Source: a virus (Duplodnaviria; Heunggongvirae; Uroviricota; Caudoviricetes). Taken from it: a DNA stretch of 12,870 nt. This document shows, one piece after another, positions 7,436-10,272 of this stretch (positions are counted from its first letter, which is position 1; every line of letters starts with the position of its first letter). The stretch lies in IMG/VR virus record IMGVR_UViG_2541047121_000027, one strand, 5' to 3'. The translations under genes were made by a program, and so were the position numbers. Below the pieces are notes generated by a model. It was not told the DNA's origin, did not search any database, and saw nothing but the letters and a program-made list of their open reading frames with translations.

Positions 7436-7488
7436 GACTGGATAAACATCCAGTTATGATTTTTTTAGTCGAAGAGGAATTTCTTACT

Positions 7489-7695
7489 ATGGCTGAAGAG
7501 AAAAAAAGCGGTGTTTCGGTGTACATAAGCCCCGAAATCGTGGAGGTGCTCAAGCAGCGCCACAAAAAAAACTATGAAGCTGGCGTTGCGGCTGGACTGG
7601 ATCCGCTGATGACGCCGGAGCCGTCGATAGGTTCACTTGTACGCTCTTATTTACTTGCGGCGCTTGGGATGCATAAAAATTATGGGGGTGAATAA
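7489..7695 (+). CDS. Hypothetical small protein (68 aa; alternative start 7456), translationally coupled to the major capsid gene
   Basis: AGAGGA 10 nt upstream of ATG 7489; its stop overlaps the capsid ATG (TAATG). Confidence 0.5.
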   Translation: MAEEKKSGVSVYISPEIVEVLKQRHKKNYEAGVAAGLDPLMTPEPSIGSLVRSYLLAALGMHKNYGGE

Positions 7696-8750
7696 TGGCA
7701 GGCAAAGCAACGGCACTTAACACTAACCAGCTTTTCATGTACCTGAATCGCGGGGATATTGCGGATTTTAAATTCAGCCCTCTGTTTACCACGCTGTTTT
7801 TCCCGAACGTGGCGACATTCAGCACGCAAAACATCATGCTGGATACCCTGGACATTGAAGAAGTCACCATGTCGGCGTTTTGTTCGCCTATGGTGGGTAG
7901 CCAGGTTCAGCGCGATAAAGGGTACGAAACCAGCACAATCAAACCTGGCTACATGAAGCCAAAGCACGAAATCGATCCAACGAAAACCATCATGCGCATG
8001 GCTGGAGAAGATCCGGCACAGCTTAACGACCCTACCTATCGCCGTATGCGCCTGATTACTGGCAACATGCGCCGCCAGATAAACGCCATTAAGGCACGCG
8101 TGGAATGGCTGGCGGTGAATGCGGTAACGACCGGAAAAAACATCATTGAGGGCGAAGGCATAGAACGCTATGAAATCGACTGGAAAATACCGGAAAACTG
8201 CATCATAGAGCAGGCCAAGGGTAAAAAATGGTCCGAGCAGGATAAAGACATGCACGACCCAATCTATGACATCGAGCTTTATGCTGATCAGGCTGGTTGC
8301 CCCGCAAACGTCATGATTATGGGCGCTGAGGTATGGCGCACATTACGCAGCTTTAAAAAATTCCGTGAGCTGTACGATCTTTCCCGTGGTTCAGAATCCG
8401 CCGCCGAACTGGCCTGTAAAAACCTGGGCGAAGTGGTGAGCTTTAAAGGCTATCTTGGTGATCTGGCCCTTATCGTCTATTCCGGCAAATACACTGACAG
8501 CGATGGTACCGAAAAATATTTCCTTGAGCCTGATTTGCTGGTCCTGGGTAACACCAACAATAAAGGGCTGGTGGCCTATGGTGCGATAATGGATCAGGAA
8601 GCGGTAAGAACGGGCGCAACACAAAACATGTTTTACCCGAAAAACTGGATTGAGGACGGCGATCCGGCGATTGAGTACGTGCAGACACACAGTGCACCGC
8701 AGCCGGTACCGGCAGATATTCGCAAATTTGTTACCGTCAAAATTGGTTAA
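7695..8750 (+). CDS. Major capsid protein, lambda gpE family (351 aa)
   Basis: Alignable to lambda gpE along its length from memory: KFSPLFTTLFFP vs KFDPLFLRLFF, PGYMKPKHEIDP vs PGYVKPKHEVNP, DPTYRRMRLITGNMR vs DPAYRRRRIIMQNMR, VVSFKGYLGDLALIVYSGKY vs AVSYKGMYGDVAIVVYSGQY, YPKNWIEDGDPA vs YPKNWVTTGDPA. GGGGG RBS. Confidence 0.9.
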   Translation: MAGKATALNTNQLFMYLNRGDIADFKFSPLFTTLFFPNVATFSTQNIMLDTLDIEEVTMSAFCSPMVGSQVQRDKGYETSTIKPGYMKPKHEIDPTKTIMRMAGEDPAQLNDPTYRRMRLITGNMRRQINAIKARVEWLAVNAVTTGKNIIEGEGIERYEIDWKIPENCIIEQAKGKKWSEQDKDMHDPIYDIELYADQAGCPANVMIMGAEVWRTLRSFKKFRELYDLSRGSESAAELACKNLGEVVSFKGYLGDLALIVYSGKYTDSDGTEKYFLEPDLLVLGNTNNKGLVAYGAIMDQEAVRTGATQNMFYPKNWIEDGDPAIEYVQTHSAPQPVPADIRKFVTVKIG

Positions 8751-8762
8751 CGGGGGGATTCT

Positions 8763-9098
8763 ATGGACACTCCATACATTGAGTTATTTGCAGGCAGTCA
8801 GCAGGTATCCACGACGTTGGTACATTTTGCCGCTGATGCTGGCGTTATTCAGGAATTTACCCCGCTGATGCTGGCAGACAATGGCGAGTTTAAGCCGTGG
8901 GATGGTCAGGAATCTGGCAAGGCTGTTTATCTGACCTCGTACCCTGTGGACACGTCAAAGCAGAAATCAGCACAGTGTTACAAGACGGGGATATTCAATA
9001 TTGCCGCCGTTAACTGGCCTGAGAGCGTCGACACCGATGCGAAAAAATGCGCCGCCTTTGCGGGTTCCGGCGTATCCGTTCAGCCGCTGGCCCGATAA
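8763..9098 (+). CDS. Head decoration protein, lambda gpD family (111 aa)
   Basis: FTPLMLADNGEFKPWDG...YKTGIFNIAAVNWPES...KKCAAFAGSGVSV parallels lambda gpD MTPLMLDTSSRKLVAWDG...YKSGTFRYEDVLWPEA...KKRTAFAGTAISI. GGGGGG RBS. Confidence 0.85.
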   Translation: MDTPYIELFAGSQQVSTTLVHFAADAGVIQEFTPLMLADNGEFKPWDGQESGKAVYLTSYPVDTSKQKSAQCYKTGIFNIAAVNWPESVDTDAKKCAAFAGSGVSVQPLAR

Positions 9099-9110
9099 GC
9101 AGGGGGAACG

Positions 9111-9524
9111 ATGGCAACGAATGAAAGCATCATGACGCTACCGCTGGCGAGTAAATTTAAAGTCGAAGCGCGGGCAATGGCTGACAGAGGTTTATCAACC
9201 TATGAGGCCGTATATCAACTAAACAAACTGGAAGAGCAGGACAAGCCGTGCGCTGATGCGATTATGGCGCTTCATGAGCATAAAGACTATCAGCCGCTGT
9301 TGCGTGCAATGGCAAACGTGCCTTGTATCGATGTTGGTACGGCTAAAAGCATCCTTAGCATGACCATAGAGCAGGAACGTCCGAAGGTTGCGCCGGAACT
9401 TACCGCAGCCTTTGAAAACTTTATGGACATGCACAGCCCGCAAGCCGTATCAGCTGGCATGGCATACGATGGCAGAAACCAGGGCGATGACGGCGACATC
9501 GATCGCATACTGAAAACCATCTGA
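9111..9524 (+). CDS. Hypothetical protein (137 aa) in the head/packaging module
   Basis: AGGGGGA RBS; same operon as the capsid genes; followed by a terminator. No recognisable domain. Confidence 0.6.
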   Translation: MATNESIMTLPLASKFKVEARAMADRGLSTYEAVYQLNKLEEQDKPCADAIMALHEHKDYQPLLRAMANVPCIDVGTAKSILSMTIEQERPKVAPELTAAFENFMDMHSPQAVSAGMAYDGRNQGDDGDIDRILKTI

Positions 9525-9530
9525 GACAAG

Positions 9531-9552
9531 GCCGGAGAAATCCGGCTTTTTT
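9531..9552 (+). terminator. Rho-independent terminator, sequence-identical to the one at 6893..6916
   Basis: GCCGGAGAAATCCGGC followed by TTTTTT; the same 22-mer occurs after the perC-like gene. Confidence 0.7.
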
Positions 9553-9553
9553 A

Positions 9554-9601
9554 CGGGTCCTTCCTGGAATTATGGCCCGTTACGGGGCGGCGACCTCGCG
9601 G
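9554..9601 (+). repeat. 48-bp perfect inverted repeat, left copy (cosQ/cosN core)
   Basis: CGGGTCCTTCCTGGAATTATGGCCCGTTACGGGGCGGCGACCTCGCGG; its exact reverse complement is at 10447..10494 (checked base by base). Confidence 0.9.
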
Positions 9602-9640
9602 ATTTTCGCTATTTATGAGCCTTTTCAGGGTGGTGGTGGT
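9554..9640 (+). other. Lambda-type cos site A (cosQ, cosN, start of cosB), plus orientation
   Basis: cosN GGGCGGCGACCT at 9585..9596 with lambda-like flanks: ACGGGTCC...GTTACG upstream and CGCGGATTTTCGCTATTTATGA downstream (lambda left end recalled as GGGCGGCGACCTCGCGGGTTTTCGCTATTTATGAAAATTTTCCGG). Lies directly upstream of the Nu1-like gene, as in lambda. Confidence 0.8.
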
Positions 9641-9729
9641 GGTTTTGTTGTTTGATCTATCTTTATGAATGAAAAGGGAAAGATGCAAGCAATACACCAA
9701 CCTGAAGCAGTAATTAAGTTGGTGTATTA

Positions 9730-10272
9730 ATGAAATCTCATCTGATGAACAAAAAAAACATGGCGAAAAGCTGCCGTGTAAGTGCGACAGCGTTCGACAA
9801 GTGGGGAGTAACTCCCGTTGAGCGTAAAGGCCGTGAGGCGTTTTATGATGTTGCCAGCGTGATAGAAAATAGGGTTAACAATGCAATTAGCCAGCTTATA
9901 AACGACAAAGGCGAGATTGACGATGATGAACTTTTACGAGTCAGGATCAGATTACTGACAGCACAGGCAGAGGCGCAGGAACTTAAAAACGATCGCGATC
10001 GCGGTGACGTGATTGATACTGAGTTTTGCCTGTACGCGCTTTCAAAGCTGGCGAGTCAGATTTCATCAATCATGGACAGCCTCCCGCTTACTATGCAAAG
10101 GAGCTTCCCACAGATTACCCCCGCCATGCTGGACAGGCTTAAAAGGGAAGTGGTTAAAGCCTGTAATGCCAGTGCCAGAGTTGCCGACAACCTCCCACAG
10201 ATACTGGCTGATTACTTGAAAGAAACAACCGGAAACGTACCGGAAAAGTTGCTACAGAAGAAAGGCGAGTAA
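9730..10272 (+). CDS. Terminase small subunit, lambda Nu1 family (180 aa; start could be 9730, 9745 or 9760)
   Basis: RLLTAQAEAQELKNDRDRGDVIDTEFCLYALSKLASQISSIMDSLPLTMQRSFPQI parallels lambda Nu1 RLTRAQADAQELKNARDSAEVVETAFCTFVLSRIAGEIASILDGLPLSVQRRFPEL; the N-terminal region (MNKKNMAKS...FDKWGV...) also parallels Nu1 (MEVNKKQLADIFG...). No strong Shine-Dalgarno at any candidate start. Confidence 0.85.
   Translation: MKSHLMNKKNMAKSCRVSATAFDKWGVTPVERKGREAFYDVASVIENRVNNAISQLINDKGEIDDDELLRVRIRLLTAQAEAQELKNDRDRGDVIDTEFCLYALSKLASQISSIMDSLPLTMQRSFPQITPAMLDRLKREVVKACNASARVADNLPQILADYLKETTGNVPEKLLQKKGE

Follow-up and report, generated by a model that had tools for sequence, protein, structure and literature searches.

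An EcCICFT073-type phage satellite of Escherichia coli O157:H7 with its own TerS-cos cassette, PICI-specific shell genes and a Nu3-like scaffold domain

A 12,870-nucleotide stretch of DNA filed as a tailed-phage sequence (IMG/VR record IMGVR_UViG_2541047121_000027; here the window) belongs to the EcCICFT073 family of classical Gram-negative phage-inducible chromosomal islands (PICIs) and represents the Escherichia coli O157:H7 copy, O-island 51 (OI-51), also called CP-933C or Sp7. The window sequence is 100% identical to many O157:H7 genomes. The three names denote one element (PMC3378721), and OI-51 was related to EcCICFT073 before (PMC6092414). Sakai SpLE2 was dropped as the identity of the island, since the literature gives Sp7. 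The best overall explanation, to which we give a probability of about 0.6, is a helper-dependent island of the EcCICFT073 type that has its own packaging system, consisting of a small terminase (TerS) and cos, and a functional set of shell genes. The element and its partial head toolkit have already been described. What is new is the annotation of a mini-Nu3 protein, the exact swap of a cos-bounded TerS/Rpp cassette, and a PICI-specific clade of coat and decoration genes that is under selection.

The island is inserted between roxA and phoQ, with roxA and pepT as its left neighbors and phoQ and phoP as its right neighbors. In K-12 the empty site is the 75-bp roxA-phoQ intergenic spacer. BLAST of this empty site against the window and against sequence L001 placed the attR core at 11402-11411 (no strand assigned), a 10-bp duplication of the K-12 site that overlaps the phoQ stop codon and forms the right end of the island; the left end lies about 1.1 kb to the left of the window. 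The island is 12.5 kb long with its insertion sequence (IS) counted in, and all island genes are co-oriented on the plus strand. Membership was judged by the descriptions of Gram-negative PICIs, of the EcCICFT073 type and of the SatelliteFinder PICI model. The island has a tyrosine integrase at one end, AlpA, a replicase with a candidate iteron origin, a capsid gene, TerS with cos, and a dedicated attachment (att) site; it has no tail, lysis, portal or large terminase (TerL) genes, and its size falls within about 10 to 15 kb. PICIs are defined by integrase, AlpA, replicase, a capsid-morphogenesis gene and TerS, without other structural genes (PMC10085698), and 21 of 29 reference Gram-negative PICIs carry a capsid gene (PMC10111431). 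The partial toolkit, which a first-pass annotation of this stretch had regarded as unexpected, is the published core definition of a PICI.

The head module encodes homologues of the lambda gpE-type major capsid protein (7695-8750, plus strand; Pfam Phage_cap_E, E 5.5e-50) and of the lambda gpD-type head decoration protein (8763-9098, plus strand; Pfam HDPD, E 5e-18), with PHROGs in agreement on both, and a full-length Nu1-type TerS of 180 aa (9730-10272, plus strand; Pfam Phage_Nu1, E 3e-23; phrog_57, E 8e-53). The first-pass annotation had named all three, and the profile matches bear it out. Identity of the coat to lambda gpE is 43% over 327 aa, and to CFT073 c1499, the crystal structure of which is available (PDB 3BQW), 96.6%; the decoration protein is 36% identical to lambda gpD and 98.2% identical to CFT073 c1500. 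Two small proteins of 68 aa (p68) and 137 aa (p137) complete the module. All five open reading frames (ORFs) are real, although p68 starts at 7489, as in RefSeq and in its homologues, and not at 7456 as first proposed.

The tblastn searches of the window with A, W, B, FI and FII of lambda and of the CFT073 prophage returned nothing, in agreement with the earlier statement that portal, protease and large terminase are missing. The C query also returned nothing in the window by tblastn, gpC protease domain included; BLASTP ties the C terminus of the prophage C protein to p137. Genes for portal, protease, TerL, connectors, tail or lysis were absent from the island, and no structural genes lay beyond its borders: head genes of the same element just outside the window were looked for, and the flanks were found to be pepT-roxA and phoQ-phoP. 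The NCBIfam and PADLOC searches gave no hits for the small proteins.

It was proposed in the older literature that OI-51/Sp7 is a "highly degraded prophage" (PMC3378721, PMC2669165), and the integrase pseudogene and the presence of an IS would fit a decaying lambdoid prophage head remnant that has no current function. However, the five ORFs are all intact, with ratios of nonsynonymous to synonymous substitutions (dN/dS) well below 1, the same compact module recurs across hundreds of genomes and in islands that differ in integrase, replicase and att site, and there are no fragments of a portal, TerL or protease-domain gene. We therefore consider decay highly improbable and effectively refuted. 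The intact head genes and purifying selection favor a helper-dependent satellite over simple decay, as the first reading of the sequence had held.

The dN/dS values, calculated by the Nei-Gojobori method across five islands, were 0.07 to 0.17 for the coat, 0.08 to 0.28 for the decoration protein and 0.13 for TerS, in line with the replicase (0.11 to 0.14); those for p137 were noisier (0.10 to 0.63), with few changes. Of the 598 E. coli genomes with the block of coat gene (E), decoration gene (D) and p137 gene, 592 keep 80% or more of its length, so that pseudogenization of E and D in most homologous islands, an outcome the first-pass annotation had allowed for, is not what is seen. The survey of related islands it had called for showed that many of them have the module but neither portal nor TerL: E. 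coli and Salmonella islands with different integrases, replicases and att sites carry E, D and either TerS or Rpp, and never portal or TerL. The PICIs embedded within the E gene of a helper follow the same pattern, and among the islands compared E is always accompanied by its own D. The coats of PICIs are 54 to 70% identical among themselves and 42 to 47% identical to phage coats (for the coat of the O157 island, 43 to 45% to phage gpE), and this gap holds even for the coat of the helper in which PICI L008 is embedded. Because the PICI coats are nearer to each other than to any phage coat, the comparison indicates an old PICI-resident lineage and not a recent capture. The coat and decoration genes are a PICI-specific clade under purifying selection. 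Two of the islands, L008 and L009 (2511-2786; 13309-14690), are embedded inside the E gene of a lambdoid prophage and bear their own E and D; their coats are only 33 to 47% identical to the helper coat that each interrupts.

The product of the p137 gene (9111-9524, plus strand) is homologous to the scaffold domain at the C terminus of the 501-aa gpC/Nu3. p137 matched phrog_53 (head maturation protease) only at positions 495-567 of 583 (E 4.7e-9), and by tblastn it matched the annotated Nu3 regions of PhiR lambdoid phages. The BLASTP alignment with the 501-aa gpC/Nu3 of phi80-like lambdoids had 39% identity (E 3e-11) and covered gpC residues 416-493, and that with gpC of the CFT073 helper prophage had 37% identity (E 3e-9). 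In local alignments, residues 49-131 of p137 and the full length of its homologue p141 aligned with the last ~130 residues of the 501-aa gpC, and profile comparison of p137 with Nu3/gpC by hhalign gave an E value of 5e-5 and a probability of 66%. Two IMAL.E...(MT)V..A..IL repeats and an FE.FM..HSP.AV tail are common to p137 and the 501-aa gpC. Lambda gpC has 439 aa, and lambda Nu3 has a single copy of the repeat and is without the tail; BLASTP accordingly found no match of p137 with lambda Nu3, nor any with the lambda-type 443-aa gpC. The homology is seen only with the 501-aa type of gpC and at the profile level. Neither a protease domain nor the N-terminal two thirds of Nu3 is represented in p137. 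We read p137, from these alignments, as a mini-Nu3 scaffold domain with a presumed scaffold function. The earlier statement that the island has no scaffold therefore does not stand, and the contrast it had drawn with scaffold-based size redirection is weakened, since the island encodes a Nu3-like scaffold domain. p137 is 96.4% identical to its CFT073 copy. Natural 93-aa variants of p137 (P0086 and P0089) have lost exactly one repeat unit.

The cos1 site (9554-9629, plus strand) contains a cosQ-like GGGTCCT at 9555-9561 and cosN GGGCGGCGACCT at 9585-9596, an exact lambda match; cos2 (10419-10494, minus strand) is an inverted cosQ-cosN copy with its cosN, again an exact match, at 10452-10463. 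The two sites are 76-nt inverted arms, 91% complementary, that flank terS. The cosQ, the cosN and the adjoining segment are identical to helper phage cos, and divergence begins about 35 nt past cosN, where cosB lies. The two cos sites of EcCICFT073 both work, but its lambda- and phi80-mediated transfer depends on cos1, which is therefore the main functional site (PMC6092414, PMC6739421). The candidate cosB of the TerS cassette is at 9627-9729 (plus strand): homology to EcCICFT073 ends at 9626, and the segment is conserved in island L007, which has the same type of TerS. A perfect 11-bp inverted repeat, AATACACCAAC ... GTTGGTGTATT, lies at 9693-9729 and ends at the annotated terS start codon; it is largely kept in L007, where one arm differs at two positions. 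This repeat might serve as a site within cosB for TerS binding, or as a hairpin that controls translation.

The terS gene follows cos1-cosB directly, the same placement as in lambda. TerS scored 82.6 bits in Pfam against a cut-off of 30 and is 36% identical to lambda Nu1 end to end over 180 aa; in the global alignment identity was 32% in the DNA-binding domain, 51% in residues 100-140 and 29% in residues 141-181. The idea that the C terminus of TerS is nearer to helper Nu1 than is the N terminus was rejected (29% versus 32%). From the Nu1 alignment the real start of TerS is likely M6, at 9745. The closest phage relative is N15 gp1 (44%). No significant BLASTP alignment was obtained between TerS and RppA, and TerS does not conform to the Rpp type (144 to 153 aa, a winged helix-turn-helix plus coiled coil, between cos1 and cos2). 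A PDB sequence search with TerS retrieved neither Nu1 nor RppC; the solved fragment of Nu1 is the divergent N-terminal domain only. The position of TerS beside its own cos/cosB fits the earlier proposal that TerS redirects packaging to the cos of the island.

Homology between the O157 island and EcCICFT073 stops at 9626 and resumes at 10419, and the inter-cos segment (9627-10418) is therefore the only replaced block. It holds cosB-TerS in the O157 island and cosB-rppA in EcCICFT073 (L002, 2606-3262). In island L005 (11910-12947) a TerS cassette is inverted between 123-nt inverted arms. When L007 (11772-11968) was compared with the window (9554-9750), L007 was found to have a TerS of the same type (86% amino acid identity) and a conserved cosB, with cosN GGGGCGTCAGGCGCGCGG in place of GGGGCGGCGACCTCGCGG and no cos2. 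Since the TerS type and cosB are kept and cosN differs, cosN and cosB appear to be matched independently, to helper TerL and to island TerS, respectively; cosN presumably tracks helper TerL. These comparisons suggest that cosB and its reader travel together as an exchangeable, possibly invertible cassette, which may explain why these PICIs retain two cos sites. Among 5426 complete E. coli genomes, the TerS cassette was present over 80% or more of its length in 487, and the rppA cassette in 53. On the 3' side of terS, at 10294-10413, there are two overlapping 18- to 19-nt inverted repeats with GATCTGA/TCAGATCC, and L005 has a comparable palindrome (12054-12110) next to its inverted TerS gene.

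We propose the following course of events for the island. A lambdoid helper would induce it, and it would replicate from its own RepA/iteron origin, as suggested by homology and by experiments on the sister island. The island TerS would bind its own cosB beside the lambda-identical cosN and recruit helper TerL (gpA type), and island concatemers would be cut and packed into heads with helper portal, protease, connectors and tails. With moderate confidence, we take the coat, decoration protein and mini-Nu3 to be a functional PICI-specific shell set. We hold with similar confidence that this set may assemble on, or co-assemble with, helper head components into normal-sized (T=7-like) shells, and that it would provide a helper-independent supply of shell proteins redundant with those of the helper. 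Such redundancy would account for neutral laboratory knockouts and for packaged DNA of phage size. Sp7 in Sakai has been reported to circularize, replicate and become DNase resistant, that is, packaged (PMC2669165). Helper-mediated transfer is on record for EcCICFT073.

A number of observations weigh against this proposal. Deletion of c1499 (coat) or c1500 (decoration) in EcCICFT073 left lambda interference and transfer unchanged (PMC6092414); the knockouts being without phenotype, assembly competence is only inferred. The AlphaFold2 (AF2) model of p137 is all-helical and of low confidence (predicted local distance difference test score [pLDDT] 44), too poor for a fold search, and the mini-Nu3 gene is absent from related islands L004 and L007 and is therefore not essential to the module. 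No deposited phage TerS is more than 44% identical to the island TerS, and in its gpA-binding region, the last 40 residues, identity to lambda Nu1 is only 29%. The integrase of the O157 copy is a pseudogene, and although Sp7 was packaged, K-12 received no transfer (PMC2669165).

The same experiments bear on capsid size. The first-pass annotation had suggested that the island sets capsid size with its own coat; this is not supported so far, because the deletions of coat and decoration genes that are 96 to 98% identical in the sister island were neutral and all DNA packaged by lambda was phage-sized (PMC6092414). On the other hand, size might be redirected with the natural helper, mini-Nu3 acting as a CpmB-like competing scaffold that mimics the C terminus of the 501-aa gpC and, together with a Ccm-like coat, producing small capsids for one genome of about 11 to 13 kb with phi80-like helpers only and not with lambda. 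The tail and repeats that p137 has in common with the 501-aa gpC would favor this, the tail being absent from the 439-aa gpC of lambda, as would the quoted size assay, which used lambda only. Of 5426 E. coli genomes, 1870 contain prophages of the 501-aa-gpC type, island-bearing O157:H7 genomes among them, and the related Pasteurella island PmCI172 has a capsid homologue and makes small capsids. However, the c1499 and c1500 deletions also left transfer by the resident CFT073 prophages, which have the 501-aa gpC, unchanged, the capsids that package EcCICFT073 have been described as phage-sized, some islands with E and D lack p137, and the CpmB/Ccm parallel is an analogy from the literature. We consider size redirection of this kind unlikely.

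A broader form of the idea, which we hold only tentatively and on balance doubt, is that p68, coat, decoration protein and mini-Nu3 are a working shell kit intermediate between classical PICIs and capsid-forming PICIs (cf-PICIs). Paired with 501-aa-gpC helpers, such a kit might build own or hybrid capsids on the helper portal, mini-Nu3 competing with the helper scaffold through the shared C-terminal motif and maybe redirecting size; experiments with lambda would miss it.

Alternatively, the coat, decoration and scaffold-like proteins could be interference or decoy factors that poison the capsids of competitor phages or titrate capsid-sensing host defenses. Purifying selection without a detectable transfer role and the divergent PICI-specific clade of coats would be compatible with such a function, and interference functions are common in this region of PICIs (PMC6739421). 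However, deletion of rppA alone restores lambda plaquing almost fully (PMC6739421), and E and D are therefore without measurable lambda interference; there were also no PADLOC hits. The strict co-conservation of a matching D argues for real shells. Lambda D binds only the assembled, expanded coat lattice. We regard a decoy role as quite improbable, and a functional shell set that supplements the proteins of the helper remains our preferred reading.

The p68 gene (7489-7695, plus strand; phrog_3255) overlaps the start of the coat gene through an ATGA. A homologue is ATGA-coupled upstream of E in L002 (EcCICFT073), L004, L005 and L006, and in L007 to L009 the gene calls showed no small ORF upstream of the coat. 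The AF2 model of p68 (pLDDT 72) is beta-alpha-alpha, with a strand at residues 9-13 and helices at 15-34 and 47-59, and Foldseek found no match in the PDB at E <1. Its likeness to ribbon-helix-helix proteins, seen by eye, is only a lead in view of that Foldseek result. Of the two small proteins for which a scaffold- or connector-like nature had first been raised, p137 is scaffold-like and p68 has no significant fold match. Between O157 and CFT073, p68 is only 66% identical (dN/dS 0.44), while the overlapping coat is 96.6% identical, a sharp local divergence. A consensus promoter scan upstream of p68 gave nothing convincing.

Compared with EcCICFT073, the prototype Gram-negative PICI (Fillol-Salom 2018, 2019), the O157 island has the same roxA/phoQ att site, the same two inverted cos sites and the same gene order (68-aa ORF, coat, decoration, 137-aa ORF, cos, small gene, cos, 93-aa ORF). 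The differences are that EcCICFT073 has cosB-rppA, encoding a 144-aa RppA that needs helper TerS, where the O157 island has cosB and the 180-aa Nu1-type TerS; that p68 has diverged as described above; and that the integrase is IS-damaged in the O157 copy.

Among the satellites of Staphylococcus aureus, the pac-type pathogenicity islands (SaPIs) SaPI1 and SaPIbov1 follow, according to the literature, the same functional logic of a satellite TerS that pairs with helper TerL, but they use headful pac and an unrelated TerS family, whereas the O157 island has a lambda-type cos and a Nu1 homologue. No Ppi homologue was recognized in family searches of the island proteins, none of which was specific to Ppi. 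The cos satellite SaPIbov5 encodes Ccm, like the island coat a homologue of the helper major capsid protein that comes without portal or TerL; Ccm, however, gives small capsids and interference, whereas the EcCICFT073 coat gave neither with lambda, and the O157 island also has its own decoration protein and scaffold domain. The homology of p137 to the C-terminal part of the lambda Nu3/gpC scaffold domain recalls the principle reported for SaPI CpmB, a short protein of the satellite that is said to imitate the helper scaffold at its C terminus.

The cf-PICIs, such as EcCIEDL933, share with the O157 island an enterobacterial PICI backbone (integrase, alpA, rep) with head genes, but they have a full HK97-type set (TerS, TerL, HNH, portal, protease, coat, connectors) and form their own small capsids, whereas the O157 island has only a lambda-type coat, a decoration protein, a partial scaffold and TerS. 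The TerL, portal, protease and head-tail connectors by which cf-PICIs are recognized were absent from the island and its flanks. For P4-like satellites, there were no Pfam or PHROG hits to Sid, Psu or Delta among the submitted ORFs, which were all but a few small ones; the head genes and cos of the O157 island are lambda-type, as opposed to the P2-type helper dependence of P4-like satellites.

The remaining features lie on either side of the head and packaging genes. At the window's left end, the end of an IS3-family element (1-386, minus strand; OrfA at 60-386, Pfam HTH_Tnp_1; IS3 family transposase in RefSeq) abuts the integrase gene, and an ALIL frameshift pseudoknot at 1-105 (94 bits), which belongs to the IS, was the only Rfam hit. 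The P4-type tyrosine integrase (388-1602, plus strand; Pfam Phage_integrase, E 8e-17) is flagged as a pseudogene in RefSeq. Its reading frame is uninterrupted from 352, but the IS lies directly against the 5' end of the gene, and the earliest in-frame start codon is consequently at 748. With the gene so damaged, the autonomous mobility of the O157 copy is probably impaired. The pseudogene flag stands beside the reported circularization of Sp7 in Sakai.

An AlpA-family regulator of the PICI master activator/excisionase type follows (1967-2155, plus strand; Pfam Phage_AlpA, E 5e-17). Between alpA and the small early genes, long ORFs overlap on both strands at 2213-3157 and 2205-2531; they had no family hits, and RefSeq lists Icd-like cell-division-inhibitor fragments there, one of them a pseudogene. 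This region is probably the "disrupted P4 alpha gene" of older papers. RgdR (ECs1581; 4048-4347, plus strand; Pfam DUF4222) has 99 aa, with RGD at residues 20-22, and is a known activator of type III secretion of the locus of enterocyte effacement, described as a 99-aa protein with an RGD motif (PMC3378721). The island replicase is a RepA-like replicative helicase (4344-5744, plus strand; Pfam AAA_25, E 2.5e-43; phrog_2850) with a dN/dS of 0.11 against L005 and L006 (range, 0.11 to 0.14). Directly 3' of rep, at 5743-5954 (no strand assigned), iteron-like AAAAGTGAGG repeats in direct-repeat families D1, D2 and D5 mark a candidate origin, in a position that agrees with that of the PICI origin (PMC6092414). 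Downstream are genes for a single-stranded DNA-binding protein (6193-6603, plus strand; Pfam SSB, E 9e-16) and a PerC-family regulator (6614-6886 in RefSeq coordinates, plus strand; Pfam PerC, E 1e-42). On the 3' side of cos2, here and in several PICIs, there is a gene for a conserved 93-aa protein, p93 (10528-10809, plus strand; phrog_1561; 88% identical to the CFT073 copy), for which the Pfam, NCBIfam and PADLOC searches gave no hit. Beyond it, about 590 bp without an annotated gene (10810-11401) extend to attR at the phoQ stop codon.

In E. coli O157:H7 the island, which encodes RgdR and a homologue of PerC, is a virulence-regulating satellite, and the EcCICFT073 family to which it belongs is a model for the satellite hijack of lambda-type packaging. 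The role of the coat and decoration genes of PICIs has been a question since 2018, and three results make it more testable: the adjoining Nu3-like domain, the PICI-specific clade under selection, and the finding that the only published size test quoted was made in lambda, the scaffold of which is without the matching tail. The precise exchange of cosB-TerS and cosB-Rpp between inverted cos sites further suggests how these islands change their packaging specificity.

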